A stretch of 64,000 nt of DNA, taken from the NCBI GenBank assembly GCA_027490975.1, contig JAIXXA010000035.1, forward strand, positions 9,164-73,163. Reading direction: 5' to 3'. Shown piece by piece: positions 15,017 through 59,845 of this stretch (the stretch's first letter is position 1; every line of letters begins with the position of its first letter). Source of the DNA: Rhodospirillaceae bacterium. GTDB lineage: Bacteria; Pseudomonadota; Alphaproteobacteria; CACIAM-22H2. The translations under genes and the position numbers were made by a program. The notes beneath the pieces were generated by a model. That model was given only the letters and a program-made list of their open reading frames with translations. It was not told the origin of the DNA and made no database searches.

Positions 15017-15107
15017 CGCGGGCGATACCTGACTTTGCAGACAAACGGGGGCGCAAAGAAAACGGCGGCGCCGCTGCCGGCGCCGCCGCAGCCGTTCCGT
15101 TATTTAC

Positions 15108-16172
15108 TTACGCACGTTCGTATTTGGCAATCAAAGCTTTGGCCGACGCGATCAGGGCATTGCCGTCGATATTGCGCTCGCGCATTTGGGCAACCCAAGC
15201 CGGGGCGACGGTTTCTGTCGCCTTTTCCCAGCGGGTCTTTTCGGCCGCACTCAAGACCGAGATCGTGTTGCCGCGCGCGCGCACCATGTCCGACACGGTT
15301 TTGGCTTCGGCATCCCACATTTGGCCGGCCACGCTCGAAAAGGCCATGCCCGATTGGCGATCGATCACGGCGCGCAATTCGGCCGGCAGACCGTCGAATT
15401 TCGCTTGGTTCATGGCGAGGAAGAAGCTTGCCGTGTAGAGGGTGGGCGAGCCCGGGATCTCGGTGTGGAAGCGCACGAGCTCGTGCACGCGCACCGAAGG
15501 CACCACTTCCCACGGAATGACAGCACCGTCGATGACGCGCTGGGCAAGCGACTCGGGCACCTGCGGCACCGGCATGCCGACCGAGACGGCCCCCAGCGCC
15601 TTCAAAGCTTCGCCTGCCAGACGCGTCGGGTTGCGCAGCTTGAGCCCGCGCATGTCGTCGAGCGTCTGGATCTGCTTGTTGGCGTGGATGACCCCCGCAT
15701 CGTGCGTCCAGTAGGCGAGCAGCTTCACGTCGCGCGTTTCTTCGGCCAGATGCGTGTCGGCGAATTCCTGGGCCGCGCGCGCATTGACCGAACCGCGCTG
15801 CGAAGCCAGGAACGGCAGCTCGAACACTTCCGTGCGCGGGAAGCGCCCTGGCGTGTTGCCCGGCAGCGTCCACACGATGTCGGCCACGCCGTCGCGCGCC
15901 TGGTTGTAGAGCTGCGGCGGCGTGCCGCCGAGCTGCATCGACGGGAACAGCTCGATCTTCAGCGCATTGTTGCTGGCCGCCGCAATGCGGTCGGCCCACG
16001 GCTGCAGCACCTTTGCGTGCACGTTCGAGACCGCTGGCAAGAAATGGTGCAGCCGCAAGGTCACGGCCTGGGCGTGTGCGGGGCGCACGATCGCCGGGGC
16101 GGCAAGGGCCGCCAAGCCGGATGCAAGCACGGTGCGGCGATTCAGAATGTGGGTCGGAGTCGGGGATTTCAT
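15108..16172 (-). CDS. dctP: TRAP transporter substrate-binding protein
   Basis: Start MKSPTPTHILNRRTVLASGLAALAAPAIVRPAHA (Tat/Sec signal). DctP-family length of 354 aa. GAGAGGAA SD upstream. Confidence 0.85.
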   Translation of the reverse strand: MKSPTPTHILNRRTVLASGLAALAAPAIVRPAHAQAVTLRLHHFLPAVSNVHAKVLQPWADRIAAASNNALKIELFPSMQLGGTPPQLYNQARDGVADIVWTLPGNTPGRFPRTEVFELPFLASQRGSVNARAAQEFADTHLAEETRDVKLLAYWTHDAGVIHANKQIQTLDDMRGLKLRNPTRLAGEALKALGAVSVGMPVPQVPESLAQRVIDGAVIPWEVVPSVRVHELVRFHTEIPGSPTLYTASFFLAMNQAKFDGLPAELRAVIDRQSGMAFSSVAGQMWDAEAKTVSDMVRARGNTISVLSAAEKTRWEKATETVAPAWVAQMRERNIDGNALIASAKALIAKYERA

Positions 16173-16329
16173 CGGCAGGGGTTCCTCTCGGTTTTGCGGC
16201 CTGCCGTTTGAACGTTGGCGACCGTCGTTTGCAATTGGGCGTTTGCAATTGAGCGCAAACCTAGCACAGGGCCACGCGCGTGCAATAGACTGGCGGCTGC
16301 CGTTTGCCCCCACATCCGAAGAGACCCAG

Positions 16330-17052
16330 ATGACCGATCTTGCCGCCGCCCGCACCGACCTTGCCGCTGCCTTTCGCTGGGCCGCGCGCCTGGGGCTCAA
16401 CGAAGGGACCTGCAACCATTTCAGCCTGCAGCTGTCGCCCGACCGTTTTCTGATCAATCCCTGGGGTCCGCATTGGGCCGAGATGCGCGCGAGCGATCTG
16501 CTGCTCGTCGATGCCGCAGGCCGCATCCTCGAAGGCAAATGGCCGATCGAAGAAACGGCGTTGTACATCCATTCGCAGATCCATCTGCGCCATCCGACGG
16601 CAACCGCCGTGCTGCACACGCATATGCCCTACGCGACCGCCTTGTGCGCGGTCGAAGGCGGACGCATCGAGCCGTGCGTGCAGACTTCTCTGCGCTTCTA
16701 CGGCCGGGTCGCCTACGACGACGACTATAACGGCCTTGCCGACGGCCCCGAAGAGGGGGCCCGCATGGCCGCCAAGATGGACGGCAAGCCCGTGCTGTTC
16801 CTGGCCAACCACGGCGTGATCGTGACAGGTCCCACGGTCGGCGAGGCGTTCGACGAGCTCTACTATCTCGAACGCGCCGCCCAAGCCCAGGTGTTGGCGA
16901 TGTCGACGGGGCGGCCGCTCAAGCTCGTACCGGGCCAACTTGCCGCACGCACCTCGCGCCAGATGGAAGACGGGCGGGCCGCCTATGCGCGCGTCCATTT
17001 CGACGCACTCAAGCGCATGCTGGCGCGCGACGAGCCGGAATTCGCGGACTGA
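16330..17052 (+). CDS. class II aldolase/adducin family protein
   Basis: MTDLAAARTDLAAAFRWAARLGLNEGTCNHFS...HTH motif. 240 aa. Confidence 0.8.
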   Translation: MTDLAAARTDLAAAFRWAARLGLNEGTCNHFSLQLSPDRFLINPWGPHWAEMRASDLLLVDAAGRILEGKWPIEETALYIHSQIHLRHPTATAVLHTHMPYATALCAVEGGRIEPCVQTSLRFYGRVAYDDDYNGLADGPEEGARMAAKMDGKPVLFLANHGVIVTGPTVGEAFDELYYLERAAQAQVLAMSTGRPLKLVPGQLAARTSRQMEDGRAAYARVHFDALKRMLARDEPEFAD

Positions 17053-43195: not shown

Positions 43196-43582
43196 ATGGC
43201 AAGCGAGTATCGCTTGATTTTCTTCGATCAGAACGAACTGTGCCGCGCCTTGATCGAATACAACAGGCAGCGGCGCACGCCGTTTCCGCCGGGCAATTTG
43301 CGCAAGGTGGTGATCGGGCGCAGTGCGCTGACCGTCACGATCCAGGTCGATCCCGACAAGGGCGGGACGACCGAACAGGTCACATTCGACACGCCCTCGA
43401 TCGCTGCGGCCCTGATCATCTTCTGCAAAGAGCGCAAGATCCCGCTGCCGGCCAAATCCTCGAAGGAAATGCGCGTGGTGGCAGACCGGCTGTGCATGCT
43501 GATCCGCACCAAGGGCACGCCGGCCGAAGCCGCCATTGCGGTCGAATACACCGGCAAGATCGTCGCAACGGCGGCGGCTTAA
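43196..43582 (+). CDS. hypothetical protein (128 aa, lower GC than surroundings)
   Basis: Ordinary amino-acid composition (I/K/F-rich) in a high-GC genome. GAGG upstream of ATG 43196; the listed ORF starts at a TTG 54 nt upstream. Confidence 0.45.
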   Translation: MASEYRLIFFDQNELCRALIEYNRQRRTPFPPGNLRKVVIGRSALTVTIQVDPDKGGTTEQVTFDTPSIAAALIIFCKERKIPLPAKSSKEMRVVADRLCMLIRTKGTPAEAAIAVEYTGKIVATAAA

Positions 43583-44379
43583 GCCGCGAAATCCACCTGC
43601 GCTTGCTGGATCAGGCGCCCGTCGGCGGCGCGCACCCAGAAATTTCCGTCGGCCTTGCCACATAGGGCGAATTCTTCGCCGTCGAACAGCGGGGCGGCGC
43701 CGCGAAAGGCGAAGCGCTTGAGCTTGGCGCCGCCGACGCGTTCGGCAAAGCCCTGCAGCAACGTCGCCAAAAGCGGCCCGTGCACGATGAGGCCCGGATA
43801 GGCTTCGACCTGCGTTGCGTAGGCGCGGTCGTAATGGATGCGATGGCCGTTGAACGTGACGGCCGAATAGCGGAACAGCAGCACGGCGTCGGCGCGCATC
43901 ACCTGCGACCAATCTTCGTCGGTCGGGGCCGCGACGGCGGCGGCGGTCGGCCCGACATCGCGATAGACGATGTCGTGCGTCTCTTCGAGGCAAAGCCGAC
44001 CGTCCACGTCGATCGCGTGGTCGACCGCAACGAACACGAGATCGCCGGTGCGCCCGCGTTTGCGCACGACATTGCGGATCGTCGAACGGCGCGTGGCTGC
44101 CGCACCGATCGGGATCGGCGCATGGAAGCGCAGATCCCCGCCCGCCCACATGCGCCGCTGCAACGCCACCGGCGGCAGAAAACCGCCGCGCGCCGGATGC
44201 CCGTCGGGCCCCAACGCAGACGCCTTGGCGGCCGGATTGAAAAACGCCCAATGCCAGCCCGGCGGCAGGAAGTCGGCGGGCGCATCGCGATCGAGACAGG
44301 CCGCAAGCTCGGCCACGCGCGTTGCGTCGACATGTGCTTCGCGCGTCTCGGTCCGGCCGATCCACTCCGTCTCGTTCAT
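43579..44379 (-). CDS. MaoC-like (hotdog fold) acyl-CoA hydratase/dehydratase
   Basis: Internal start MNETEWIGRT, 266 aa double-hotdog. GGAG SD. ATGA overlap with the upstream CoA-transferase stop. Confidence 0.75.
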   Translation of the reverse strand: MNETEWIGRTETREAHVDATRVAELAACLDRDAPADFLPPGWHWAFFNPAAKASALGPDGHPARGGFLPPVALQRRMWAGGDLRFHAPIPIGAAATRRSTIRNVVRKRGRTGDLVFVAVDHAIDVDGRLCLEETHDIVYRDVGPTAAAVAAPTDEDWSQVMRADAVLLFRYSAVTFNGHRIHYDRAYATQVEAYPGLIVHGPLLATLLQGFAERVGGAKLKRFAFRGAAPLFDGEEFALCGKADGNFWVRAADGRLIQQAQVDFAA

Positions 44380-45506
44380 GCGAACTCCGCGCGCAAGGCG
44401 GCGCCGTGCTGGCCCAAGGCGGGTACGGCGCGCAACGGACGGTCGCGCACGCCGTCCACGATCGGCGGCGGTGCTGGGATCGCCACCGGCCCTGCCGGCG
44501 TTTCGACTGCCACGCGCCGCAACTGCGGATGGGCCGAAAAACGCGCGACGTCGTTGACCTCGCCGAACGCGATCTTGGCGCGGTCGAGCAAAGCCACAAG
44601 CTCGGCGCGCGCATGCTTGGCGAAGAACGCGGCGATATGCGCGTCGAGCGCTTCGCGATTCGTCACGCGCAGGATGTTCGTCGCGAATTGCGGCAGCGAA
44701 GTTTCGCCGAGCACGCCGCCGCAGAAGTCGCGCCATTCGCGGTCGTTCTGGATCGAGATCAGAATCGCGGCCCCGTCGGCGCTTGCGAATGCGCTGTAGG
44801 GCGCGACGGACGGGTGTTTGAGGCCCACGCGCGCGGGCGCTTTGCCGGCATAGTCGAAATGCAGCAAGGGTACGGCCATCCAATCGGCCATGCCGTCGAA
44901 CAGCGAGACTTCGATGGTCGCACCTTCGCCCGTGCGCCCGCGCCGGATCAAAGCCTCGAGCACGGCTTGGTGCGCGTACATGCCGGCCGCAATGTCGCAC
45001 ACCGACACGCCGACGCGCGCGGGTGCGTCCGCACTGCCGGTGATCGAGGCCAAACCCGTTTCGGCCTGCACGAGCATGTCGTAGCTCTTGCGCTGCGCAT
45101 ACGGCCCGTCGGCCCCGTAGCCCGAAACATCGACGCAGATGAGCTTGGGATAAAGCTTGCGCAATTCCGCACTGCCGAAACCGGCGCGCGCGGCGGCCCC
45201 CGGCATCAGGTTCTGCACGAACACGTCGGCCCGATCCAGCATGCGATGCAGGAGCGCCGCGTCGTCGGCGTTTTTGATGTCGGCGACCAGCGACTCCTTG
45301 CCGCGATTGAGCCACACGAAATAGCTCGCCTGGCCTTTGACGGCCGCATCGTAGCCGCGCGCGAAATCGCCCTCGGGCCGCTCGATCTTGACCACGCGCG
45401 CGCCGGCATCTGCCAAACGCGACGTGCAATAAGGGGCCGCCACCGCCTGCTCGAGGGCGAGCACAAAAATGCCGTCGAGTGCACCGTCTGTTTTCGGCGC
45501 GGGCAT
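44376..45506 (-). CDS. family III CoA-transferase (CaiB/BaiF family)
   Basis: Start MPAPKTDGALDGIFVLALEQAVAAPYCTSRLADAGARVVKIE. Catalytic Asp context VSVCDIAAG. Start overlaps the ACAD stop by 1 nt. Confidence 0.85.
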   Translation of the reverse strand: MPAPKTDGALDGIFVLALEQAVAAPYCTSRLADAGARVVKIERPEGDFARGYDAAVKGQASYFVWLNRGKESLVADIKNADDAALLHRMLDRADVFVQNLMPGAAARAGFGSAELRKLYPKLICVDVSGYGADGPYAQRKSYDMLVQAETGLASITGSADAPARVGVSVCDIAAGMYAHQAVLEALIRRGRTGEGATIEVSLFDGMADWMAVPLLHFDYAGKAPARVGLKHPSVAPYSAFASADGAAILISIQNDREWRDFCGGVLGETSLPQFATNILRVTNREALDAHIAAFFAKHARAELVALLDRAKIAFGEVNDVARFSAHPQLRRVAVETPAGPVAIPAPPPIVDGVRDRPLRAVPALGQHGAALRAEFA

Positions 45507-46651
45507 CAAAACGACCTCGGCAGGCCCAGCACATGCTCGGCGATGTAGGACAGCACGAGATTGGTCGAGACGGGCGCCACCTGGTAGAGCCGCGTCTCGC
45601 GGAATTTGCGCTCGACGTCGTATTCCTCGGCAAAGCCGAAGCCGCCATGCGTCTGCAGGCACGCTTCGCCGGCCTGCCACGACGCGTCGGCCGCCAGCAT
45701 CTTGGCCATGTTGGCTTCCGCCCCGCAGGCCTCCCCCGCCTCGTAGCGCCGGATCGCTTCGTGCACCATGAGCTCGGCGCTGCGCATCGCGGCATAGGCT
45801 TTGGCGATCGGGAACTGCACGCCCTGGTTCTGGCCGATCGGGCGGCCGAATACGCGGCGCGATTTGGCGTAGGCCGACGCCGTCTCGACGAACCAGCGCG
45901 CATCGCCGATGCACTCGGCGGCGATCAGGATGCGCTCGGCATTCATGCCGTCGAGAATGTAGCGAAAGCCGCGCCCTTCCTCGCCGATGCGGTTTTCCGC
46001 CGGAATTTCGACATTGTCGAAAAACACTTCCGTCGTCGCGTGGTTCAGCATCGCGCGCAGCGGCTTAATGGCGAGGCCCTTGGCGCCGCGCATGTCGAGC
46101 ACGAAGACCGAAAGCCCGTCGGTTTTTTTGGCAGTCGCGTCTTTCGGCGCGGTGCGCGCGAGCAGCAGCATCAGGTCCGAATGTTCGGCCCGGCTTGTCC
46201 ACACTTTCTGGCCGTTGACGACATAGACGTCGCCGCGCCGCTCGGCCGTGGTGCGAATGGCCGAAGTGTCGCTGCCCGCGTCGGGTTCGGTCACGCCGAA
46301 CGCCTGCAGGCGCAACGCGCCCGACGCAATGCCCGGCAGGTAAAGCTGCTTTTGCGCGGGCGAGCCGTGCCGCAGGATGGTGCCCATCGTGTACATCTGC
46401 GCGTGGCATGCGGCACCGTTGGCGCCGCTGGCGTGGATCTCTTCGAGGATCGCAGCGGCGGCCGAGAGCGGCAGGCCCGCCCCGCCGTATTCTTCCGGAA
46501 TGAGGGCCGCCAGCATGCCGCTGTCGGTCAGCGCTTTGACAAACGCGGTCGGATATTCGCGCGCGCGGTCGCGGTCGCGCCAATAGCGGCCGGGAAAATC
46601 GCGACACAGCGCTTGCACGCTCGCGCGGATCTCCGCGTGCCGCGCAATCAT
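45506..46651 (-). CDS. acyl-CoA dehydrogenase
   Basis: Start MIARHAEIRASVQ, 381 aa. ACAD N/M/C domains (FGVTEPDAGSD, catalytic-base region GGFGFAEEYDVERKFRE). ATGA overlap with the upstream Ldh_2 gene. Confidence 0.85.
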   Translation of the reverse strand: MIARHAEIRASVQALCRDFPGRYWRDRDRAREYPTAFVKALTDSGMLAALIPEEYGGAGLPLSAAAAILEEIHASGANGAACHAQMYTMGTILRHGSPAQKQLYLPGIASGALRLQAFGVTEPDAGSDTSAIRTTAERRGDVYVVNGQKVWTSRAEHSDLMLLLARTAPKDATAKKTDGLSVFVLDMRGAKGLAIKPLRAMLNHATTEVFFDNVEIPAENRIGEEGRGFRYILDGMNAERILIAAECIGDARWFVETASAYAKSRRVFGRPIGQNQGVQFPIAKAYAAMRSAELMVHEAIRRYEAGEACGAEANMAKMLAADASWQAGEACLQTHGGFGFAEEYDVERKFRETRLYQVAPVSTNLVLSYIAEHVLGLPRSF

Positions 46652-47652
46652 CCCGCCGCCCGTTTGCGCAGATCGGCCAAGAGATCGGCGGGCACCTTGA
46701 TGCCGTCCTTGGCCGCCTTTTCGCGCAAGGCAAGGCGCCTTGCGCCCGGCAGACGCGTGCCCGATTGGCCGAGCACCGCCCCCAGCAACGCTTCGACGCG
46801 CGCGGCAAACGCTTCGCCCGCAAGCCGTGCGGGATCGATCAGCAGCAGCAACTGGCCCACGCGCGGCGGCGGGCCTTTGGCGTCGAAAAACGAGCTCGCC
46901 TCGAAACCGAAATGCGAGGCGGTCAAGGCCGCCGACAGCAATTCGACCATCAGCACGAGGGCCGCCCCCTTGGCGTCGCCCAGCGGCAGCATCGTGCCCG
47001 CGAGCGCCTGTTTGGCGTCGGTCGTGGGCGCGCCTGCCGGATCGAGCGCCCAGCCCTCCGGAATCGCTTCGCCCTTCTGCGCGGCGACCATGATCTTGCC
47101 GCGCGCGACTTTGGACAATGACAAGTCGATCACCAAGGGCGGCTGGCCGCGCCGCGGGCAGCCAAACGCGATCGGGTTGGTGCCGAACAGCGGCTTTGAC
47201 CCGCCCCACGGCGCGATCGCCGCCGGCGAATTGCCGAACAGCAACGCCACAAGCCCGTGCTTGGCCGCGGCTTCGACATGCAGCCCCGCCGCCCCGAAAT
47301 GGTGCGAGTTGGCAATGCCGACCGCAACCGTGCCGGCAGACTTCGCCATGTCGGCGGCGCGCAGAATCGCAGCCTGAATGGCCGGATAGGCAAAGCCGTC
47401 TTTTGCATCGACCAGCAACGTGCCGGGTGCCGTAACCGTCAACACAGGGACCGCATGGCCATCCACTTTTCCGACCTTGGCTTGATCGGCATATGCCGCG
47501 ACGCGCGACAGGCCGTGGCTGGCAAGCCCGTCGGCTTCGGCTGCAATCAACGCGTCGGCGACGGACGCCGCATTGGCGGGCGACGTGTTCGCGGCAACGA
47601 GGGCCGCCACGGCCAGCCGATGCGCTTCGGCCAAGGCGATGGTTTCGCTCAT
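46648..47652 (-). CDS. Ldh_2 family (malate/L-lactate dehydrogenase 2 / (R)-sulfolactate dehydrogenase ComC-like) oxidoreductase
   Basis: Start MSETIALAEAH, 334 aa. Ldh_2 signatures (GIANSHHFGAAG, GTNPIAFG). Overlap with the upstream gene. Confidence 0.8.
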   Translation of the reverse strand: MSETIALAEAHRLAVAALVAANTSPANAASVADALIAAEADGLASHGLSRVAAYADQAKVGKVDGHAVPVLTVTAPGTLLVDAKDGFAYPAIQAAILRAADMAKSAGTVAVGIANSHHFGAAGLHVEAAAKHGLVALLFGNSPAAIAPWGGSKPLFGTNPIAFGCPRRGQPPLVIDLSLSKVARGKIMVAAQKGEAIPEGWALDPAGAPTTDAKQALAGTMLPLGDAKGAALVLMVELLSAALTASHFGFEASSFFDAKGPPPRVGQLLLLIDPARLAGEAFAARVEALLGAVLGQSGTRLPGARRLALREKAAKDGIKVPADLLADLRKRAAG

Positions 47653-48599
47653 TTGCGGCCCTTGATACCAAGCTTCTGCAGGGCCCCGCGCACATTGGCG
47701 ACGGTCACCGTCGAGACGCGCACATTGCCCTCGGCGGTCACGCCCGCAATATGCGGCGTAAGCCACAGGCGCGGCACGCCTTCGAGAACGGAGCCTTTTT
47801 TGAGCGGCTCCTGGTCGAACACGTCGAGCAGGGCGCCGCCCAATGCGCCGGCCTTGAGGGCGGCGGCCAACGCCGCCTCGTCGATGATGCCGCCGCGCGC
47901 CGTGTTGATCACGAGGGAAGTCGACTTCATCGCGGCGAGGCGCTTGGCATCGAGCAGGTTGCGCGTCTGCGGCGTCAATGGCACGTGCAGCGACACGACG
48001 TCGCTCGACGCGCACAGCGTGTCGATGTCGGCCACGCGCGCCACGCCGTATTGCGCCCAGGCCGGATCGTCGGGCTTCAGCATCGGATCGTACGCGACGA
48101 TCTCCATCTCGAGCGCTTTGGCGCGGCTCGCCACCGCGCGCGCAATGCCGCCGAAGCCGACAAGGCCCAAGCGCTTGCCCATGGCTTCGCCGAGCATCAG
48201 GTCGTTGCGCGGCCATTTGCCGGCAAGCACGGCATCGTTGGCCTTCCACACGTCACGCAAACCCACGAGGATCGCCGCAATCACGTATTCGGCGACCGAT
48301 ACGGTGTTGGCCCCGGTCGCGGGGAAAACCTGGATGCCGCGCCGCGCGCACTCGTCCATGTCGATATTGTCGAGGCCGACGCCCAGGCGGCCGATCGCTT
48401 TGAGATTTTTCATCGCCGCCAGCACGGGCCCGCGCACTTGCGTGCGGTTGCGCACGATGATGGCGGGGCTGTCGGCCGCCAGCCGCGCGAGTTCGTCAAG
48501 ATTGTCGACGAGTTTGGGATCGTAATGGACGGAATAGTCCCGGGCGAGATCGTCCACCGCCCATTGGTCCACGAATTCGGCTACGACGATGTCGTACAT
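47649..48599 (-). CDS. D-isomer-specific 2-hydroxyacid dehydrogenase (PGDH-like)
   Basis: Start MYDIVVAEFV. NAD motif GLVGFGGIARAV, catalytic R...E...H (TARGGIIDE, PHIAG). Confidence 0.85.
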   Translation of the reverse strand: MYDIVVAEFVDQWAVDDLARDYSVHYDPKLVDNLDELARLAADSPAIIVRNRTQVRGPVLAAMKNLKAIGRLGVGLDNIDMDECARRGIQVFPATGANTVSVAEYVIAAILVGLRDVWKANDAVLAGKWPRNDLMLGEAMGKRLGLVGFGGIARAVASRAKALEMEIVAYDPMLKPDDPAWAQYGVARVADIDTLCASSDVVSLHVPLTPQTRNLLDAKRLAAMKSTSLVINTARGGIIDEAALAAALKAGALGGALLDVFDQEPLKKGSVLEGVPRLWLTPHIAGVTAEGNVRVSTVTVANVRGALQKLGIKGRK

Positions 48600-48600
48600 T

Positions 48601-50205
48601 TCACATCTGCTCCATATACTCGGCCGGGTCGACGAGCGCGTCGATGACCGTGAATTTGCGCACGGCAAGCGCTTGCGCGAAAGCCGTTTCGAACGCCGCA
48701 AGGCTTTCGACGCGCACGCCGACAGCCCCGCACGCTTGCGCCACGAGGTCGAAACGCGGGCCCGCGAAATCGACGGCGCGCTGCGCCATCTGCATCTTGG
48801 CCTGTTTGAGTTTGATCAGCGACAAGGCGCCGTCGTTGAGCACGACGACGACGATCGGCAGATCGAGCTCGGCCGCAAGCGGCAACTCGCCCAAAGTCAT
48901 CAGCATGCAGCCGTCGCCGACCAAGGCCACGACCGGCGCGGCAGGGTCCGCCAGCTGCGCGCCGATGGCCGCGGGCACGGCATATCCCATGCAGCAGAGC
49001 CCGTTCGACTGCATGAGCTGGCCCGGCGCTTGGGCGGCGATCGCGTGGCTTGCCAGGATGCGATGGGCGCCCACATCGACCGTCATGCGCCATTTCGGCG
49101 TGACGCGATCCGACACGGCCTTGAACAACGCCGCCGGCGAAATGCCCGCAGCGGGATTGCGCGGGCGCACGATATGCGCGACCTCCGCGCGGCACGCGGC
49201 CAGCATTTCAGATGCCCAGGCGGGCGTGCTCGCAGCCGTCAGCTGCGCCAGCATCGTCGGCAGATCGCCGTAGCATTCCCGGCCCAGCGGGAAGATGCGG
49301 TGGTTGAGCGGCCCCCAATCGAGCGCGATCACGTCGACCGCCGCGCCCCACGCATCGACCCAGGCGTCGCGCAGTTCGATCGGATCGAAGCCGACGCACA
49401 CGATGAGATCGGCCGCCGCCAGCAGTTTGAGATTGGCCGCATCGACGATCGGCGACAGGCCGACCGCACCCAGGCACAGCGCATGTGTGTCGCTGACCAC
49501 ACCCTTGGCTTTGTAGGTCGCGAAAAACGGCATGCGGCGTGCCTCGAGGAACGCCTGCAGCGCTTGCGGCACGCGCTCGGCCAAAGCGCCGCGCCCCACG
49601 AGGGCCAGCGGCCGCTTGGCCGCGGCGAGCTTCGCGCACAAATCGGCGGCGGCATCTTCGGCAAGGCCGGTGCGCAAGATCTGGGCTGGGCTCGGCTCGG
49701 CCGTCTCTTTGCTGTCCTGGCGGCCGAGGTCGGCCGGCACGTTCAGCATCACGGGGCCGGCGGGATAGCTCGTCGCAATGTCGAGGGCGCGCGCCAGATG
49801 CTGGGCGGGGCGCGCGGCGTTGAGATGGGCCGCGTATTTGACGACCGGCGTCGCCAGCGCCACATGGTCGAACGCCTGGTGGTTGTAGATCTGTGCGTTC
49901 GCCGTCGCCATTTCGCCGGTCAGAACGGCGATGGGCGAACGCTCCATCAAGGCGCCCGCAAGCCCCGCCGTGGCGTTGGCGATGCCGGGGCCGAGTGCGG
50001 GGATCAGCACTTGCGGTTTGCCGGTGATCTGCGCCGCGGCATCGGCCATGAAGGCCGCCGCCGGCTCGGACTTCGCGAGCACGAAGCGAATGCCCGCCTC
50101 TTCGCAGGCGCGCACGGTTTCGAGCACGTCGTTGCCCGGAATGCCGAAGGCAAAAGAAGCGCCCCATGCCTTCAGCGTGCGCGCGAGACGGTCGGCGACC
50201 TTCAT
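48601..50205 (-). CDS. thiamine-pyrophosphate enzyme, acetolactate synthase large-subunit / sulfoacetaldehyde acetyltransferase-like family
   Basis: N-terminal TPP-PYR (GIPGNDVLE), central, and C-terminal TPP-binding GDGCMLM motifs. 534 aa. Confidence 0.85.
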   Translation of the reverse strand: MKVADRLARTLKAWGASFAFGIPGNDVLETVRACEEAGIRFVLAKSEPAAAFMADAAAQITGKPQVLIPALGPGIANATAGLAGALMERSPIAVLTGEMATANAQIYNHQAFDHVALATPVVKYAAHLNAARPAQHLARALDIATSYPAGPVMLNVPADLGRQDSKETAEPSPAQILRTGLAEDAAADLCAKLAAAKRPLALVGRGALAERVPQALQAFLEARRMPFFATYKAKGVVSDTHALCLGAVGLSPIVDAANLKLLAAADLIVCVGFDPIELRDAWVDAWGAAVDVIALDWGPLNHRIFPLGRECYGDLPTMLAQLTAASTPAWASEMLAACRAEVAHIVRPRNPAAGISPAALFKAVSDRVTPKWRMTVDVGAHRILASHAIAAQAPGQLMQSNGLCCMGYAVPAAIGAQLADPAAPVVALVGDGCMLMTLGELPLAAELDLPIVVVVLNDGALSLIKLKQAKMQMAQRAVDFAGPRFDLVAQACGAVGVRVESLAAFETAFAQALAVRKFTVIDALVDPAEYMEQM

Positions 50206-50256
50206 CGGGTCGCCGCCGTTCCGGTCGGCGTGCGAGGCGCGGCCGCGCGCTCCGTC

Positions 50257-51465
50257 TTACGCACTTTGGTAGAGTTTGGTCATCACGAATTCGCGATGGC
50301 CCAAGGCCTCGGCGCAGGTATAGCGGCCGTTGCACACGCGGATCATCACGTCGATCAAGCGATCGCCCGCCTCGTCGAGATCCATTTCGCGGCGCAGGAT
50401 GCCCGACACGTCGAGATCGATATGCTCGGGCATCAGGCGCGCGGTCTTGGGATTGGCCGTGAGCTTGATCACGGGCTCGATCGGATTGCCGATCACGTTG
50501 CCCTGGCCCGTGGGGAACAGATGCACGACGAACCCCGCCGCCGCCTGCAGCGTCACGCATTCGGCGGCGGCCGACGACGTGTCCATGAAATAGAGGCCCT
50601 TGCCCTTGGCCGGCATTTCGGCCGGGCCCAGCACGTCCACGTATTTCGTCTTGTGGCCAATCTTCTGGAAATTGCCGAAGGCTTTTTCCTCGATCGTCGT
50701 GAGGCCGCCCGCGATGTTGCCCTTTGTCGGCTGCGAGTCCGACAGGTCGTCGGTTTTGTAGCGCTCGATCATGCCTTGGTACGCGTTGAACACGCCCATG
50801 AACTTGTCGGCGACGTTTTTGTTGAGCGCGCGCTTGACCATTTCGGTCTCGGCACCCGTGAGCTCGGACGTTTCGCCGAAGCACGTGGTCGCCCCCAAGG
50901 GGTCGATCTTGTCGATGAGATTGCCGACCGTCGGGCACGAGGCGAGGCCCGACGTGGTGTCGGATTCGCCGCATTTGGTCGAGACCCAAAGCTCGTCGAT
51001 CGTGCAGGCCTCGCGCTGCTTTTCGGTCGCCCACATCACGAATTGCTGGGCGACGCGGCTGGCCGCTTCGATGGTTTTGAGATCGCCGTTGCCTTCGATC
51101 GCGAAGCCCTGCACGGGCTTGCCGGTCTTGGCGATGCCGTCCACGACGCGCGCGGTCCAGCCGGGCTCGATGCCGATCACGACCACGGCCGCCACGTTGG
51201 CGTTGCAGCCCGTGCCGATCAGCGTGCGGAAATGGAGGGCCAGATCTTCGCCGAACTGCAGGCGCCCGTAGGCGTGCGGCAGCGCCATCGTTCCCTTGAT
51301 GTTGTTGGCGACGGCTTCGGCCGCCGAATTCGACAGATCGTCGAGCGGCAACACGATGACGTGGTTGCGGATGCCGACGCGGCCATTCTCGCGGCGATAG
51401 CCCATGAAGGGCAGTTTGCCGACCGAACGCGCGCGCTTTTTGATGAGTGCTGGGGCTTTGGCCAT
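50257..51465 (-). CDS. UxaA-family dehydratase large subunit (altronate dehydratase C-terminal homolog; SuyB-like)
   Basis: Start [10 protein letters not shown]...[17 protein letters not shown] corresponds to the start of the UxaA large domain. Perfect AAGGAG SD 7 nt upstream. Confidence 0.75.
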
Positions 51466-51506
51466 GGGCCGCTCCTTTTTGTTCGCCGATTCCCTTAAGG
51501 GCACGC

Positions 51507-51791
51507 TTACCAGCGCTTGGTCTTCATGTTGTGGACGTGGACATGGTCGCCTTTTTTGGCGTCCGCCACGATGCGGCCGATATCGTGCCCGTATTTGAGG
51601 ACCGTATCGCCCTTCTTGAGATCGACGAGGGCGATCTTGTGGCCGAGCGGAATGGCTTTGAGCGCCTTGAGCTTGACCGTGCCGTCGCCTTCCATGAGCC
51701 AGCCTTCGAGCATGGCGCCGGGTTTGACGTCTTCGACGACGATCACGCCGACCGTGTCCTTTTTGTCGTGGACGATGAATTGGGTCGCCAT
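51507..51791 (-). CDS. UxaA-family small subunit with SAF domain (SuyA-like)
   Basis: 94 aa, [24 protein letters not shown]-domain pattern. GGGGAGGG SD. Confidence 0.7.
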
Positions 51792-51875
51792 GTCCCTCCC
51801 CTTGGTGTCGTTGCTTTTGCTTCGCGAACTTCGTGAGCCGACGCTAGGGCGCTCCGCGTTCTTGCGTCAATTGCA

Positions 51876-51894
51876 TCTTCTATCTTATAGAAGA
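51876..51894. promoter_or_regulatory. perfect 19-bp palindrome TCTTCTAT-ctt-ATAGAAGA, putative GntR/HutC operator
   Basis: 8-bp arms in perfect reverse complement. Ends 2 nt before the gntR ATG, in the divergent intergenic region between the regulator and the suyA-like operon. Confidence 0.6.
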
Positions 51895-51896
51895 CT

Positions 51897-52625
51897 ATGC
51901 GCTCCAAACTCGCCCGGCCTCTGCCGCTTTACGCGCGCGCCAAACAAGCTTTGATGCAGAAGCTCGGCAGCGGCGTGTGGCGGGCTGGCGAAAAACTGCC
52001 GCCCGAACCCGCCCTTGCCGCGAGCCTCGGCGTGAGCCAAGGCACCGTGCGCCGGGCGCTGGACGACATCGCCAAAGCCAACCTGATCGTGCGCCGGCAG
52101 GGCCGCGGCACGTTCGTGGCCGAGCACACGCAAGCGCGCGCTCTGTTCCATTTTTTCCATCTCGTCGGCGACGACGGCAGGCGCGCTTTGCCGGGCAGCC
52201 GCATGCTGTCGCTCAAGGCGGGCCCTGCGACGCGCGACGAATCCCAGCGCCTGGGCCTCGCACCGTCGGCGCGCGTCGTGCGGCTGCAGCGTTTGCGCCT
52301 GCTCGAAGGGGCGGCCGCGATCGTCGAACGCATCGTCGTGCCCGCCGCCCTCTTCCAAGGGCTCGACGTGCGCGACCGGGCCGATCTGCCCAACGAGCTC
52401 TACAAGCTCTACCAGGACCGTTTCGGCGTGTCGGTCGCGCGGGCCGCCGAACGGCTCAAAGCCGTGGCCGCGAGCCCCGAAGACGCGGCCTATCTCGGTT
52501 TGCGCAGCGGTGCCCCCTTGCTCGAGATCGACCGCATCGCGTTCGCGCTCGACGGACGCGCCTGCGAATGGCGCGTGTCGCGCTGTTCGACGCACCGCCA
52601 CCACTATGTTTCCGAAGTGGTTTAG
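51897..52625 (+). CDS. GntR family transcriptional regulator, HutC subfamily (UTRA effector domain)
   Basis: N-terminal wHTH (LPPEPALAASLGVSQGTVRRALDDI) plus a C-terminal UTRA-like domain. 242 aa. Confidence 0.85.
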   Translation: MRSKLARPLPLYARAKQALMQKLGSGVWRAGEKLPPEPALAASLGVSQGTVRRALDDIAKANLIVRRQGRGTFVAEHTQARALFHFFHLVGDDGRRALPGSRMLSLKAGPATRDESQRLGLAPSARVVRLQRLRLLEGAAAIVERIVVPAALFQGLDVRDRADLPNELYKLYQDRFGVSVARAAERLKAVAASPEDAAYLGLRSGAPLLEIDRIAFALDGRACEWRVSRCSTHRHHYVSEVV

Positions 52626-52640: not shown

Positions 52641-53771
52641 ATGGCGACACCGGACGAAATCCGCGACGGCTTGCGCGAACTCGATTTTGCTTTGCAGGCG
52701 GCCTGGAAGCTCGGCCAGCACATGATTGCGGGCTGGACGGTGGCGGGCAATGTCGTGTCGATCTGCGCGGCGCCTGTGTGGCGCGTGCTGGCCGAGGCGC
52801 CCAAAGTGCCGCGCGTGCTGTCGGGCAGCCGCCAGATGGGGGCCCAGACCTTCGGCGAGGTCGCCAAGACGCTGCAGGCGCGCCCGATCCGCGTCGAGCT
52901 GCCCTTCGCGGTCGGCGACGGCAAAGGCGACGTCGATCCGCAGGTCGTGGACCAAGTCGTGCGGCGCTACGGCGTGTCGCGCACCGAGCATCGCGCGGTG
53001 ATGCTGTTCGACATCGTCGGTTTCTCGAAGGTCGATCCGCTCGCGCAGATGGCGCAGCTCGCGAGCCTCGAATTTTCGATCAACAACGCGGCCAAAAAGA
53101 TGGCCGAGATCGGGCTCGACATCGAGCTCGCACGCTCGACCGTCGGCGACGGGTTCTATGTGTGGAACCGCGCGCGCGGCTTCGAGGCAGATCTGCGCAC
53201 CTATGCGGCCCTGGTGCTGATCCTCGCCGACAATGCCGTGGCGCGCCTGCGCGGCCAGGCCGATTTTGTGCCCACCTTGCGCACGTGTTTTTCGGTGGGG
53301 GCGCACTACGCCTACCACCAGATCGAAGGCACGCGCCCGCGCGGCTTCGAATATCTGGTGGGCGAAGTGACGATCCAACTGGCGCGCCTGATCGGCAAGG
53401 CGCAGGCGAACCAAGTGTGCGTGGGCAGTTTCGTGCGCCCGACCGAGCCGCCGGTCGTGCGCCAGCTCGACACGATTTTGTTTCTCGCACGCGCCGAAAA
53501 GCTCGTCGACAAGCTGCAGGGCCTCACCGTGGGCGGCCACGCGATCGCGCGCATCCGCAGCCAGATCACCGGCGGCAAGGTCGGCGACACGGCGTTGCCG
53601 CTCGTCGTGCACCGCATCGTCGACAAACACGGCTACAACCACGATCTGTTCAACACGCGCCTGCTCGTGCAGCGCGAAGAAGCCGACCCGATCGTGGTGG
53701 GCCTGCAGCCGCAAGACCTCGCGGGCTTCGAAGCCGAAGCGCTGCCCTACAAGATCCCCGAAATCACGTGA
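52641..53771 (+). CDS. class III nucleotidyl-cyclase-fold protein (divergent, possibly non-catalytic)
   Basis: VMLFDIVGFS (metal Asp of the F[A]DIVGFT motif), STVGDGFYVW (second Asp, GD), and a YLVGEVTIQLARL region matching GxxVNxAARL but with Asn replaced by Ile. About 100-aa N-terminal and C-terminal extensions. Starts 16 nt after gntR. Confidence 0.6.
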   Translation: MATPDEIRDGLRELDFALQAAWKLGQHMIAGWTVAGNVVSICAAPVWRVLAEAPKVPRVLSGSRQMGAQTFGEVAKTLQARPIRVELPFAVGDGKGDVDPQVVDQVVRRYGVSRTEHRAVMLFDIVGFSKVDPLAQMAQLASLEFSINNAAKKMAEIGLDIELARSTVGDGFYVWNRARGFEADLRTYAALVLILADNAVARLRGQADFVPTLRTCFSVGAHYAYHQIEGTRPRGFEYLVGEVTIQLARLIGKAQANQVCVGSFVRPTEPPVVRQLDTILFLARAEKLVDKLQGLTVGGHAIARIRSQITGGKVGDTALPLVVHRIVDKHGYNHDLFNTRLLVQREEADPIVVGLQPQDLAGFEAEALPYKIPEIT

Positions 53772-54346: not shown

Positions 54347-55618
54347 CTATTCCGCTGCGAGCCTTGCTTTGGCGCGCGCATCGAGAAGGGCCGTGTCGAG
54401 CGGCAGGCCCTTGAGCTGGTCGTCGTCGGCGATCGCGTCGCGCAGATCGATGCGGTCGAGACTCGCGCCGGCGAGTTTGGCGCCGCGCAGATCGACCGCA
54501 CGCAACGCGGCCTGGTCGAGCTTGGCGGCAAAACGGCGGTCGGCCGCGATCACGAGCGGCGAAAAATCGCAGTCGCGCAGATCGGCGCGCGTGAGTTTGG
54601 CCCCCGTGAGATTGACGCCGCGCAGATCCGCCCCGGCAAGTTTGCAGTCGCGCAAGTCGGCGCCCATCAGGCGCGCACCCTGCAATTGGCAACCGCGCAG
54701 ATCGAGCCCGACCAGAATCGCCTTCTCCGCGCGCAAGCCCACCAGCACCAGCCCCGCCAAAGGCGGCAGGCTGCGGCAATCGTAGCCGGAAAGATCGGCG
54801 GCCTTGCCTTGCGCCCCGCCCGTCTGCGCCCAGAGGGCGTGCAGGCGCAGCAGTTCGGCGGGTGCAACACCCTGCTCGGCGAGCGCTTTGCCGGCGAGAT
54901 TGTCGTTGACGACGTCGACCAGCGAAGCGCCGTCCATCACGGCGTCGGCAAGCTTCGTCCCCGTCATCACGGCGCCGTCGAGCGACGCTCCCGTGCAATT
55001 GGCGCCGCGCAGATCGGCCCCTGCGAGATTGGCGCCGACGAACTGCGCCTTCTGCAGATTGGCGCGCGCCAGTTTGCAGTCGCGCATGATCGCGTCGGTG
55101 AAATCGGCCTGGCCCGCCGACATGCCCTCCATCGACGCTTCGGAGAGGTTGGCGGCGGCAAGCGTGGCCCCCTGCAATTCGGCCGGGCCCACTTTGCCCA
55201 GGCGCACGGCATGCAGATTGCCGGCTTTGTCTTTCTGCGTGATCGAGCCTTCGCGCAGATCGGCCTGGATCAGATTGGCGCGCGTGAGATTGGCGCCGCG
55301 CAAACACGCCCCGCGCAGATCGGCGCGCACGAGGCTCGCCCCCTCGAGATCGGCCTCGCGAAAATCGCAGGCGAACAAGGACGCGCGGTCGAACACGCAA
55401 TCCGACAGCATGGCGCCGCGGAACGAGGCTCCCGTGCAATCGGCCTCGGCGAGATTGGCGCCCGCCATCGCCATGCCCGAGAGATCGGCGAACGCAAGCT
55501 GCGCGCGCACGCCGCCGGGTTTGCCGGTGCGAAACCGCTCGTGCAGCGCGATCGCATTCGCAAGTTCCGAATGCGAGTATTTTTTGCGCTGAATGTTCGA
55601 GGACTGGGTCGAGAGCAT
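54347..55618 (-). CDS. pentapeptide repeat-containing protein (423 aa)
   Basis: Continuous A(D/N)LxG pentapeptides. ATG at MLSTQ preceded by AAGG; the listed ORF starts at an upstream TTG. Confidence 0.8.
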   Translation of the reverse strand: MLSTQSSNIQRKKYSHSELANAIALHERFRTGKPGGVRAQLAFADLSGMAMAGANLAEADCTGASFRGAMLSDCVFDRASLFACDFREADLEGASLVRADLRGACLRGANLTRANLIQADLREGSITQKDKAGNLHAVRLGKVGPAELQGATLAAANLSEASMEGMSAGQADFTDAIMRDCKLARANLQKAQFVGANLAGADLRGANCTGASLDGAVMTGTKLADAVMDGASLVDVVNDNLAGKALAEQGVAPAELLRLHALWAQTGGAQGKAADLSGYDCRSLPPLAGLVLVGLRAEKAILVGLDLRGCQLQGARLMGADLRDCKLAGADLRGVNLTGAKLTRADLRDCDFSPLVIAADRRFAAKLDQAALRAVDLRGAKLAGASLDRIDLRDAIADDDQLKGLPLDTALLDARAKARLAAE

Positions 55619-55750
55619 CGCGCCGCCTTTTGACAAAGGCCAAAGTGCCCGATCAGAAACGCTAATTCAAGCCCTTAGCACCTGCGCGATGCGTAGAACC
55701 GCGCAATTTGCTAGGCTCGCGCGTTCGTTTCGAACATCGGAGGCCTGTCG

Positions 55751-58484: not shown

Positions 58485-59102
58485 ATGCTCGAAGACGGCG
58501 GCAGCCACGCGGTTCTGGCCCTTGCTTCGGCCGTGGCCTGGGCGAGCGGGCTCAATCTTTACGGCGCCGTTCTCGCACTTGGCGCCATGCAGTGGTTCGG
58601 CATCGTCGATCTGCCGGGCGAGCTCGGGCTGGTCGCGCGGCCCGAAGTGATGCTCGTGGCAGGGCTGCTCTACGCCGCCCAATTCGTCGCCGACAAGATC
58701 CCGGGCGTGGATACGCTGTGGGACACGGTCCACACATTCGTCCGCATTCCGGCGGGCGCGTTGCTCGCCGCCGCTGCCGTGGGCCAAGCCGATCCAGCAC
58801 TGCATCTCGCGGCCCTGCTCGGCGGCGGCGCGTTGGCGCTCGGCACGCACGCGACCAAGGCAAGCGGGCGGCTGTTCGTGAACGCGCATGCGCCCGTGGT
58901 GGGCACGGCGGGTGCGTCGCTGGCCGAGGATGCAACCTTGTTCGGCGGCCTCTATCTTGCGGCCGCGAACCCGACGCTGTTTTTGATCGCCCTTGCCGTG
59001 CTTGTCGCCGCGATGGTCGTGGCGCTTTGGTATCTGGCGAGGTTCGTCGGCTTCCTGCTGCGCAAGCTCGCCGGGCTGTTCGGCACGCGGGCGCGCACCT
59101 AA
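58485..59102 (+). CDS. DUF4126 family membrane protein
   Basis: Four to five hydrophobic helices. 205 aa. Confidence 0.6.
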   Translation: MLEDGGSHAVLALASAVAWASGLNLYGAVLALGAMQWFGIVDLPGELGLVARPEVMLVAGLLYAAQFVADKIPGVDTLWDTVHTFVRIPAGALLAAAAVGQADPALHLAALLGGGALALGTHATKASGRLFVNAHAPVVGTAGASLAEDATLFGGLYLAAANPTLFLIALAVLVAAMVVALWYLARFVGFLLRKLAGLFGTRART

Positions 59103-59845
59103 GCCTTCACGAACAGCAGATAGAGCCCGTAGCCGAGATACCAAAGGCTCACGGCATTGACGATGCCGTCGGCCCAGCGGCGGAACGCGACGTCTTTCAT
59201 GCGCTCGAGCACGAGGCCGCCGAGGCTCGTGCCCAGCACCGCCATCGCGATCGCGACGGCGAGCACGTGCGGTTCTTCGAACACGACATCGTCGATCAAC
59301 GCGCCGAAATAGACGAGCTTGGCGAAATGGCCGAAACTCTGCACGGCCGACTTGGTCGCCACGATCTCGCGCCGGTCGAATTTGCCGCGCAGGAAAAACG
59401 CGTCGAGCATCGGGCCTGCCACGCCCGTCATCAGAATGGCGGTCATGCAGATGGCGCCGTAGAGCACGGCGTCGAGCCGGTTTTCGGGCCGCCCCTGCCA
59501 CGCATCGGGCACGAGGCGCACCGCAAACGGGATGAGGCCCAGCAGCACAAACGCGTGCGCGCGCTCGGGCACGTACAAAAACAGCGACCACAGCAACACG
59601 GCACCGAGTGCGCCCGCCACATAGAACGAAGCCGTCGCGATGCGGATATGGCGCCGCCACATGAAGGCGCGCGACAGGTTGGCCGCGATCTGCGTGGCGC
59701 CGTGCAAAGCCATGGCGGCGGGGACCGGCATGAAGCTCAGCAGCACGCCGATCAGAATGACCCCGCCCGCCATGCCGAAGATCCCGGACAGGATCGACGT
59801 GCCTACGACCAAGGCCGCAAAGCCCGCAAGCACAAGCGGCGTCAT
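59099..59845 (-). CDS. sulfite exporter TauE/SafE family protein
   Basis: 248 aa, 7-8 TM, duplicated 4-TM halves with GxGGG-like motifs (GMAGGVILIGVLL, GTSLGGLVL). Confidence 0.8.
   Translation of the reverse strand: MTPLVLAGFAALVVGTSILSGIFGMAGGVILIGVLLSFMPVPAAMALHGATQIAANLSRAFMWRRHIRIATASFYVAGALGAVLLWSLFLYVPERAHAFVLLGLIPFAVRLVPDAWQGRPENRLDAVLYGAICMTAILMTGVAGPMLDAFFLRGKFDRREIVATKSAVQSFGHFAKLVYFGALIDDVVFEEPHVLAVAIAMAVLGTSLGGLVLERMKDVAFRRWADGIVNAVSLWYLGYGLYLLFVKA

Follow-up and report, generated by a model that had tools for sequence, protein, structure and literature searches.

What substrate is served by an operon that joins enzymes of sulfolactate cleavage to enzymes acting on coenzyme A (CoA) esters? 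This question is raised by eight minus-strand genes in a stretch of 64,000 nucleotides from a Rhodospirillaceae bacterium (GenBank assembly GCA_027490975.1, contig JAIXXA010000035.1), hereafter referred to as the window. The genes are designated G1 to G8 in the order of transcription, and the related contigs that were compared with the window carry L-numbers. According to our reading, to which we assign a probability of roughly 0.6, the gene families and their neighborhoods point to a sulfonate-catabolic island that degrades a sulfonated succinate analogue, either sulfosuccinate or 3-sulfopropionate, the operon in the window being a shortened copy of this island.

The operon and the larger island

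An earlier note on this DNA had described the eight genes as one translationally coupled operon, and our gene calls and domain searches confirm both the genes and their order (Table 1). The four consecutive start-stop overlaps that it reported are present, with ATGA at the junctions G4/G5, G5/G6, and G7/G8 and TGATG at G6/G7, whereas the 3-nucleotide gap said to accompany them is in fact a single nucleotide (TGA-A-ATG at G3/G4). Upstream of G1 we found the ribosome-binding site GGGGAGGGA. The gap between G1 and G2 comprises 41 nucleotides with the ATG start of G2, and 2 nucleotides only if the GTG at position 51504 is used; the ATG is preceded by an AAGGAG ribosome-binding site and yields a protein of the same length as its homologs. 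G2 and G3 are 51 nucleotides apart. Within the operon, no convincing terminator was detected on the minus strand, the lone hit being a weak 5-bp stem in coding sequence. Moreover, all eight reading frames are intact with their coupled junctions kept, and all operon genes are under purifying selection, the ratio of non-synonymous to synonymous substitutions (dN/dS) relative to the related genes being 0.04–0.07 for seven of them and 0.19 for the hydratase gene G8.

The operon is real; as a unit, however, it is incomplete, since it arose from a conserved island of ~18–19 genes by a deletion of 8.1 kb. This is revealed by blastn comparison with L008, a contig of a Telmatospirillum metagenome-assembled genome (MAG), which shares 93% DNA identity with the window across the side of the regulator and suyAB. 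The homology ends at position 50242 of the window (L008 position 11223), 14 nucleotides past the stop codon of the suyB-like gene G2, and resumes at position 50208 (L008 position 19312), 3 nucleotides before the start of G3, which encodes a thiamine diphosphate (TPP)-dependent enzyme. The same junction is spanned by L007 (JADCJJ010000095.1), an independent 2.5-kb contig with 98.4% DNA identity to the window, and is therefore not an assembly artifact. L007 is labeled as a Myxococcaceae MAG despite this identity and was probably mis-binned.

In L008, the interval between suyB and the TPP enzyme gene contains genes for an sdhB-like protein, a cytochrome b anchor, TauE, an SsuA-family binding protein, an ATP-binding cassette (ABC) ATPase, a permease, fumarase-like subunits, and an sdhA-like protein. 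The binding protein is 73% identical to the SsuA-typed protein of L001, fumA and fumB were seen as tblastn hits, and the sdhA-like gene was assigned from the position of an open reading frame (ORF) before the TPP enzyme gene together with synteny with L089. Homologs of the lost genes were not found elsewhere in the 64-kb window. Four further contigs, L089, L091, L092, and L093, which were found via relatives of G8, contain the genes for the ABC ATPase, permease, fumA, fumB, sdhA, the TPP enzyme, slcC, comC, an acyl-CoA dehydrogenase, a CoA-transferase, and a hydratase in this order. They also share the downstream flank of the window, which comprises an ORF of 128 amino acids (aa), DnaJ, CobS, and CobT. 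The order G3 to G8 recurs in at least four other contigs with 56–96% protein identity and hence does not reflect chance; an exact match of the window protein G5 was not found in public assemblies. Taken together, the relatives show that the island also comprises genes for an SsuA-type ABC importer and a TauE exporter as well as for a four-subunit paralogue of succinate dehydrogenase/fumarate reductase (Sdh) and a two-subunit class I fumarase-like enzyme (Fum).

The composition of the island varies among the relatives. L001 and L017 contain suyAB, TauE, the binding protein, the ABC ATPase and permease, an enolase-superfamily gene, slcC, comC, and CoA genes without Sdh and Fum; all three CoA genes are present in L001, and the L017 contig ends after the acyl-CoA dehydrogenase gene. 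Plasmid pMRAD01 of Methylobacterium radiotolerans JCM 2831 harbors a complete cluster that lacks the CoA trio and consists of a binding protein, sdhBCD, fumAB, sdhA, the TPP enzyme, another binding protein, TauE, suyAB, a DctA-type transporter, slcC, comC, and a GntR regulator. A tblastn search for the trio in L018, L026, and L075 yielded no hit within fetched flanks that may cut the cluster. The possibility that Sdh/Fum and the CoA trio are strict alternatives is ruled out by L089, L091, L092, and L093, in which both occur in one cluster. In the Phreatobacter-type version of the island (L004 and L101), we observed aconitase-X-type genes, at 12645–14317 in L004 (large and small subunits) and at 5599–6843 in L101 (where only the large subunit was checked), as well as a beta-lactamase-fold gene between the fumarase subunits.

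Given the deletion, the operon might be a decaying remnant which, after the loss of importer, exporter, and the Sdh- and fumarase-like enzymes, at most cleaves sulfolactate while its TPP and CoA genes are being lost. Besides the deletion mapped against L008 and the lack of counterparts of the lost genes in the window, the partial TPP enzyme gene is in line with decay, as its ratio between the window and L007 (dN 0.023 versus dS 0.060) is higher than elsewhere. The intact frames and coupled junctions, however, argue for maintenance, and so does a dN/dS of 0.05–0.19 relative to a full-island relative. Moreover, L001 and L017 keep CoA genes, importer, and TauE in the absence of Sdh/Fum, indicating that the trio can stand without them, and the rest of the genome could supply transport. 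We consider decay improbable. Provided that other parts of the genome take over transport, sulfolactate cleavage and the CoA route may still operate in the copy in the window; alternatively, this copy may be partly disabled.

Table 1. Position of the operon genes, control elements, deletion junction, and selected neighbors in the window.
Feature	Position	Strand	Characteristics
G1, suyA-like small subunit, first operon gene	51507..51791	-	94 aa; TIGR03248 match
G2, suyB-like large subunit, probable (R)-sulfolactate sulfo-lyase	50257..51465	-	402 aa; Pfam GD_AH_second and GD_AH_C
G3, TPP-dependent enzyme, acetolactate-synthase-like	48601..50205	-	534 aa; three TPP domains
G4, SlcC-like D-2-hydroxyacid dehydrogenase	47649..48599	-	316 aa; Pfam 2-Hacid_dh
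G5, ComC-like Ldh_2 dehydrogenase	46648..47652	-	334 aa; Pfam Ldh_2, E=6e-101
G6, acyl-CoA dehydrogenase	45506..46651	-	381 aa; all three acyl-CoA dehydrogenase domains
G7, family III CoA-transferase	44376..45506	-	376 aa; Pfam CoA_transf_3, E=4e-104
G8, itaconyl-CoA-hydratase-like double hot-dog hydratase, last gene	43579..44379	-	266 aa; Pfam FAS1_DH_region and MaoC
Deletion junction	50209..50241	-	33 nucleotides without counterpart in L008, replacing 8,088 bp (sdhB to sdhA)
Operon promoter-like elements	51841..51870	-	-35 TTGACG (51870-51865), 18-nucleotide spacer, -10 TAGCGT (51846-51841)
Probable operator, inverted repeat TCTTCTAT-N3-ATAGAAGA	51876..51894		perfect 8-bp arms, 3-nucleotide center
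Divergent GntR/UTRA (HutC-subfamily) regulator, SuyR-like	51897..52625	+	Pfam GntR E=3.5e-19, UTRA E=1.2e-32
Conserved 376-aa protein after the regulator	52641..53771	+	adjoins the regulator in L001 (71%), L008 (97%), and L009-L012 (82-84%)
TauE-family gene	59099..59845	-	regulator side, upstream of the operon promoter, ~7 kb away

The sulfolactate module and its control

The first two genes had been likened to SuyAB, the (R)-sulfolactate sulfo-lyase. As judged by comparison with genes in annotated clusters of related strains, G1 and G2 are indeed a true SuyAB orthologue. The small subunit had been described as a SAF-domain protein. The Pfam SAF domain was not detected in G1, and this assignment is supported solely by the similarity of G1 to the N-terminal region of GarD (residues 6–79 of the galactarate dehydratase model TIGR03248, E=6e-9), whereas G2 covers positions 106–493 of the galactarate dehydratase model. 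Together, the two proteins display the heteromeric SuyAB layout, in which a short subunit representing the N-terminal domain of the GarD/UxaA type is combined with a large subunit representing the remainder. SuyAB has been described as the sole characterized heteromeric member, a heteromeric L-fuconate dehydratase having been inferred from gene context.

G1 is 53% identical to small UxaA-family genes of both Cupriavidus pinatubonensis, the organism to which SuyAB is attributed in a 2026 review, and Paracoccus versutus. G2 is 67.2% identical to the C. pinatubonensis suyB gene, which lies downstream of hpsN, hpsO, a major facilitator superfamily (MFS) transporter, and a further dehydrogenase (hpsN-hpsO-MFS-hpsP), and 68.2% identical to a P. 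versutus gene that is flanked by genes for a GntR regulator and a 'putative sulfate exporter' and lies close to a sulfite oxidase gene. In a plasmid collection, 13 records match G2 at 65–73% and all others show at most 38% identity, which represents a sharp break. In an alignment that also contained the SuyB-type sequences of C. pinatubonensis, P. versutus, and M. radiotolerans as well as E. coli UxaA and GarD, G2 shares 67–69% identity with the former three and 29% with the latter two, and three of the four cysteine columns common to UxaA and GarD are replaced by serine, arginine, or a gap in G2 and in all three SuyB-type sequences. This loss fits a published remark that these cysteines are conserved across the superfamily except in SuyAB.

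These results also bear on the possibility that G1/G2 dehydrates tartrate, a hexarate, or another hydroxy-dicarboxylate or sugar acid without a sulfonate group, and that the operon serves the breakdown of sugar acids or tartrate. The only domains to which Pfam and NCBIfam assign the pair are those of galactarate/altronate dehydratase, and one acidobacterial context comprises a dicarboxylate symporter and no TauE. However, G1/G2 group with SuyAB and not with the sugar-acid dehydratases; two of the three SuyB-type genes used in the alignment belong to known 2,3-dihydroxypropane-1-sulfonate (DHPS)/sulfolactate clusters, the third being part of the island of M. radiotolerans, G2 shares the SuyB-specific cysteine pattern, and TauE and SsuA-type importers are directly adjacent in close relatives. 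The sugar-acid or tartrate reading is thus largely refuted by the sequence evidence, and we regard it as very unlikely.

A protein search revealed relatives of G2 with 82–93% identity in several phyla. The identity between the alphaproteobacterial G2 and MAG genes of Acidobacteriota, Chloroflexota, and Eremiobacterota amounts to 82–84%, and in Pelagibacterales to 71–74%. This high conservation of SuyB points to strong constraint or frequent transfer.

The dehydrogenases G4 and G5 were likewise anticipated to match the SlcC/ComC pair, the two-dehydrogenase sulfolactate "racemase", and both the families and the gene order bear this out. The best NCBIfam match of G4 is phosphoglycerate dehydrogenase (280 bits), and it is 46–57% identical to the D-2-hydroxyacid dehydrogenase genes adjoining suyAB in simple suyAB clusters; SlcC, the (S)-sulfolactate dehydrogenase that has been characterized, belongs to the same family and is placed within or next to the SerA clade, whereas ComC is an Ldh_2 enzyme. 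For G5, the best match is the L-sulfolactate dehydrogenase model NF040650 with 198 bits, under the cut-off of 500, the ureidoglycolate dehydrogenase models scoring nearly as high (188 bits); its orthologs with 54–69% identity adjoin suyAB in many genomes. Orthologs of G4 and G5 as a pair adjoin suyAB in L034, L046, L057, L072, and L095, and many such genomes lack the other island genes. In the published Paracoccus cluster, suyA, suyB, slcC, and comC are consecutive. We conclude from these sequence comparisons that G1, G2, G4, and G5 represent the known module, which would convert (S)-sulfolactate via sulfopyruvate to (R)-sulfolactate and then to pyruvate and sulfite.

The same four families in the same order, suyA-suyB-(slcC)-(comC), form the SlcC/ComC-SuyAB module of Chromohalobacter salexigens, Paracoccus pantotrophus, P. 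wurundjeri, and C. pinatubonensis, and a divergent GntR-type regulator is shared with the P. versutus suyAB cluster. In contrast to this module, the window has the TPP enzyme between suyB and slcC and three coupled CoA-ester enzymes downstream, and its operon lacks a sulfite exporter, a sulfolactate transporter, and upstream genes for DHPS, cysteate, or sulfosugar degradation.

The divergent gene had been assigned to a HutC-type regulator. In line with this, we found an N-terminal GntR and a C-terminal UTRA domain, with the HutC model scoring 100 bits, under its cut-off of 220. The protein is 46% identical to the GntR gene adjoining suyAB in P. versutus, 44–75% identical to the regulators adjoining suyAB in relatives, and 95% identical to that of L008. 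The 105-bp divergent intergenic region contains an inverted repeat that is unique in the window, where none is expected by chance. The identical sequence is present in L008, and a related palindrome with the core CTTATATAAG occupies the same position in L001, L017, and L010. We infer that the GntR/UTRA protein binds this palindrome. Downstream of it, the hexamers TTGACG and TAGCGT are conserved in an alignment of five related intergenic regions, and on account of this conservation they were taken as promoter-like elements, at a site that a generic consensus promoter scan did not report. The operon is probably under the control of a SuyR-like GntR/UTRA repressor.

The CoA-ester enzymes and the candidate substrate

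What, then, do the remaining genes contribute? The last three had been said to resemble the itaconate enzymes Ict and Ich together with an acyl-CoA dehydrogenase, and this holds at the level of families. Over 259 aligned residues, G8 shares 51% identity with the itaconyl-CoA hydratase of solved structure (PDB 8KHG, E=1e-73). The best NCBIfam matches of G7, all under cut-off, are CoA:oxalate, succinate-glutarate, and succinyl-CoA:mesaconate CoA-transferases, and its solved relatives are 4ED9, YfdE, and SUGCT. Those of G6, again all under cut-off, are acryloyl-CoA reductase, non-decarboxylating glutaryl-CoA dehydrogenase, and 3-sulfinopropanoyl-CoA desulfinase, the latter with 203 bits against a cut-off of 600. 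As read from the sequence without a reference alignment, G6 has a glutamate in the motif NAER (helix G) and a glutamine at the position used by medium-chain acyl-CoA dehydrogenases. We take this glutamate to be at the position of the catalytic base of the isovaleryl-CoA-dehydrogenase type. On this reading, G6 is probably a true dehydrogenase.

The combination of CoA-transferase, acyl-CoA dehydrogenase, and Ich-type hydratase is also found in the methylsuccinate/itaconate cluster of Pseudomonas aeruginosa and Cupriavidus necator, where Ict, (RS)-methylsuccinyl-C4-CoA dehydrogenase, Ich, and (S)-citramalyl-CoA lyase (Ccl) act in sequence, aided by methylsuccinate isomerase, an MmgE/PrpD protein. 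Both sets follow the same logic, in which a substituted succinate is activated, desaturated, and hydrated. However, the window trio lies inside a sulfonate island, and a lyase-family gene was found neither in the operon nor among the gene families of the islands L089, L091, L092, and L093; an MmgE/PrpD gene is likewise absent from the operon, and some relatives have an enolase-superfamily (MR_MLE) gene in place of the isomerase. As judged from the gene families, the CoA half therefore resembles the methylsuccinate/itaconate route but lacks its lyase.

This difference is relevant for the alternative that the operon is mosaic and joins two functionally independent parts, the standard enzymes for sulfolactate (SuyAB, SlcC, and ComC) and a C5-dicarboxylate module acting on non-sulfonated methylsuccinate- or itaconate-like acids, the two being merely co-transcribed. 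Such an origin would agree with the observation that G8 is about as similar to a bona fide itaconyl-CoA hydratase as to its counterparts in more distant islands (56–57% identity), that suyAB-slcC-comC stands alone in many genomes, and that Ich-like genes occur in many CoA clusters. It is contradicted by the missing lyase, which the known route needs. Moreover, every relative of G8 with at least 56% identity whose context was examined lies in a sulfonate island straight after slcC-comC with stop/start overlaps, and the operon has a single conserved operator/promoter region. We consider a mosaic of this kind unlikely.

For the TPP enzyme G3, the proposed similarity to Xsc was not borne out. Its best NCBIfam match is PRK08322 (313 bits), the acetolactate synthase models score 313 and 294 bits, and its best solved relatives are catabolic acetolactate synthases. 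With the Xsc model PRK07525, whose cut-off is 620 bits, G3 reached 178 bits split over two pieces, which rules out this assignment. In the full islands, orthologs of G3 follow sdhA. From this recurrent position, we would guess that G3 uses one of the 2-oxo acids that occur in the route, either sulfopyruvate or pyruvate.

The sulfonated nature of the substrate, which the earlier note had raised as a possibility, is favored by the importers and exporters in the clusters of the relatives, whose binding proteins match the SsuA family and in which TauE is embedded. Since the added enzymes belong to families acting on succinate-type dicarboxylates and CoA esters and are clustered with SsuA-type importers, TauE, and SuyAB, a sulfonated succinate analogue is suggested. 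Two such compounds come into question. In 3-sulfopropionate, one carboxylate of succinate is swapped for a sulfonate, and sulfosuccinate is the sulfo analogue of methylsuccinate. The former is known to arise in the metabolism of homotaurine and as an end product when sulfoquinovose and DHPS are fermented anaerobically. The latter is chiral, which would imply a racemase role for the enolase-superfamily gene by analogy with methylsuccinate isomerase, and the DctA-type transporter of M. radiotolerans would suit it.

In the mechanism that we propose, the full island would provide two parallel routes of desaturation followed by hydration, one for the free acid by the Sdh-like and fumarase-like enzymes and one for the CoA ester, in which G7 would activate the substrate and recycle CoA, G6 would desaturate, and G8 would hydrate. 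Which of two outcomes results would depend on the carbon to which water is added. Hydration could generate a 1-hydroxy-sulfonate that loses sulfite unaided, by which sulfosuccinate would be converted to oxaloacetate, or a 2-hydroxy-3-sulfo acid (sulfolactate or 3-sulfomalate) that would be passed by G4/G5 to SuyAB. In the branch via 3-sulfomalate, which would require hydration by the CoA trio on the carbon without the sulfonate, oxidation and loss of CO2 would give sulfopyruvate, and its reduction (R)-sulfolactate, so that every gene would be used. In the case of 3-sulfopropionate, the Sdh-like and fumarase-like enzymes would form sulfoacrylate and then sulfolactate, which would feed SuyAB. 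G3 would most plausibly act on sulfopyruvate or pyruvate. Having lost the importer, the exporter, and the free-acid route, the copy in the window would retain sulfolactate cleavage and the CoA route.

MaoC/Ich-type hydratases add water at the position beta to the thioester. With 3-sulfoacrylyl-CoA or 3-sulfofumaryl-C4-CoA, beta hydration would consequently place the hydroxyl group on the carbon that bears the sulfonate. The product would be a bisulfite adduct that is expected to lose sulfite, leaving oxaloacetyl-CoA in the case of sulfosuccinate. Such an unaided loss would explain both the missing lyase and the occurrence of Sdh/Fum/TauE modules that lack SuyAB.

Several points weigh against the proposed island for a sulfonated succinate analogue. 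If sulfite leaves without SuyAB, it is not certain how the CoA trio would be linked to SuyAB in function, and the tight coupling of the trio to slcC-comC is left unexplained. In the metagenome contigs L104, L109, L114, and L147, the Sdh/Fum/TauE core is present although suyAB is missing from the surrounding 10 kb; sulfolactate hence need not be the product of Sdh/Fum, and the modules may be independent desulfonation units that are merely clustered. Ich-like proteins with ~52% identity are present in many unrelated CoA clusters, and orthologs of G3 with 65–69% identity also occur in Aliidongia and Pelomicrobium, in contexts that revealed neither a sulfonate link nor a functional clue. The operon in the window has no dedicated importer or exporter and may be partly disabled. 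Finally, the substrate is deduced from enzyme families and gene context only.

The suyAB-free modules were found by scanning metagenome contigs for the fumarase-like subunit. They are compact (sdhB-cytb-cytb-TauE-fumA-fumB-sdhA), may be self-contained desulfonation units, and are accompanied by a protein of the chromate transporter family and by a different TPP enzyme, which resembles 2-hydroxyacyl-CoA lyase.

As an extension of the proposed island function, we tentatively suggest that the island could represent the first genetically defined route or routes for the mineralization of 3-sulfopropionate or sulfosuccinate, in which Sdh and fumarase paralogues would act on sulfonates, a parallel CoA route without a lyase, homologous to methylsuccinate degradation, would end with spontaneous loss of sulfite after hydration on the sulfonate-bearing carbon, and SuyAB would take the sulfolactate branch.

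Neighboring genes and significance for sulfonate degradation

The earlier note had pointed to a TauE sulfite exporter 8 kb downstream of the operon. The gene is real, although it is located on the upstream side, beyond the regulator, and appears to be an unrelated paralogue of the genomic backbone. It shows no similarity to the island TauE at tblastn E<1e-5, by which its role as the exporter of the operon is ruled out. L008, which has its own island TauE, contains an unannotated ORF of 248 aa at the corresponding position of the backbone, the two being equal in length, the only property compared. Genes for a DUF4126 protein, a gamma-glutamyltranspeptidase, and a DUF4197 protein adjoin the window TauE, and the ORFs of L008 in this place agree with them in length and order, the two properties to which the comparison was confined.

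For the conserved 376-aa protein encoded after the regulator, no Pfam, NCBIfam, or PDB match was obtained, and a single-sequence structure prediction was unusable, with a predicted local distance difference test (pLDDT) score of 36. Its motif FDIVGFSK is reminiscent of class III nucleotidyl cyclases. On the other side of the operon, a conserved ORF of ~128 aa (43196–43582, plus strand) converges on the operon, and its stop codon overlaps that of the hydratase gene by 4 nucleotides. Its counterpart in L089 shares 95% identity, L091–L093 contain it in the corresponding position, and a Pfam match was not obtained. The window also encodes two large pentapeptide-repeat proteins, at 54347–55636 (minus strand) and 10589–11950 (plus strand), the former of which is conserved on the regulator side of the island in L001 and L008 (71–72%). 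Genes for a tripartite ATP-independent periplasmic (TRAP) transporter of the DctM and DctP types are located at 13074–16619 (minus strand), ~27 kb from the operon.

How does the island relate to known sulfonate pathways? For Advenella and Variovorax, a 3-sulfinopropionate route is reportedly based on a family III CoA-transferase and a desulfinase of the acyl-CoA dehydrogenase family. Here, too, a sulfur-containing succinate analogue is handled as a CoA ester by the same two families, and the desulfinase model is among the best matches of G6. However, G6 scores far under the cut-off of this model and is followed by a hydratase, which the desulfinase route does not need. For Roseovarius nubinhibens, a conversion of 3-sulfopropionate via sulfoacrylate to sulfolactate has been proposed in a thesis, as summarized in PMC11489063. 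The chemistry is the same as that predicted for the Sdh-like/fumarase-like module feeding SuyAB; the available text, however, names neither genes nor enzymes for it, and the window itself lacks the Sdh and fumarase-like genes.

As the earlier note had supposed, a described pathway that joins both gene sets was not found: our literature search yielded no paper that combines the SuyAB set with CoA enzymes, nor one on the larger island with Sdh and fumarase paralogues. The search likewise yielded no pathway paper for sulfomalate, sulfofumarate, sulfosuccinyl-CoA, or sulfoacrylyl-CoA, and no genes described for the desulfonation of sulfosuccinate. According to a 2024 paper, bacterial degradation of 3-sulfopropionate, apart from the thesis proposal, and of 3-hydroxypropanesulfonate had not been reported, and the 2026 review describes the mechanism of 3-sulfopropionate degradation as still unclear. 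The sulfolactate half of the operon is known, whereas the modules that would feed SuyAB-based desulfonation would be new.

Organosulfonates make up a large share of the organic sulfur in soils and waters, and the fate of some abundant ones is unknown. The island probably enables soil and freshwater bacteria to degrade a sulfonated relative of succinate, and it thereby supplies testable genes where a gap in the knowledge of sulfonate degradation is acknowledged. Behind the automatic name 'UxaA family hydrolase', which most public annotations use, stands a highly conserved SuyB family with at least 80% identity across several phyla. Moreover, the locus and its fuller relatives provide a concrete and testable gene set, in which a succinate dehydrogenase paralogue and itaconate-type CoA enzymes would have been recruited to sulfonate chemistry. 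Two strains in culture, Methylobacterium radiotolerans JCM 2831 and Rhodoblastus acidophilus DSM 137, contain this set and are amenable to growth experiments and enzyme assays.

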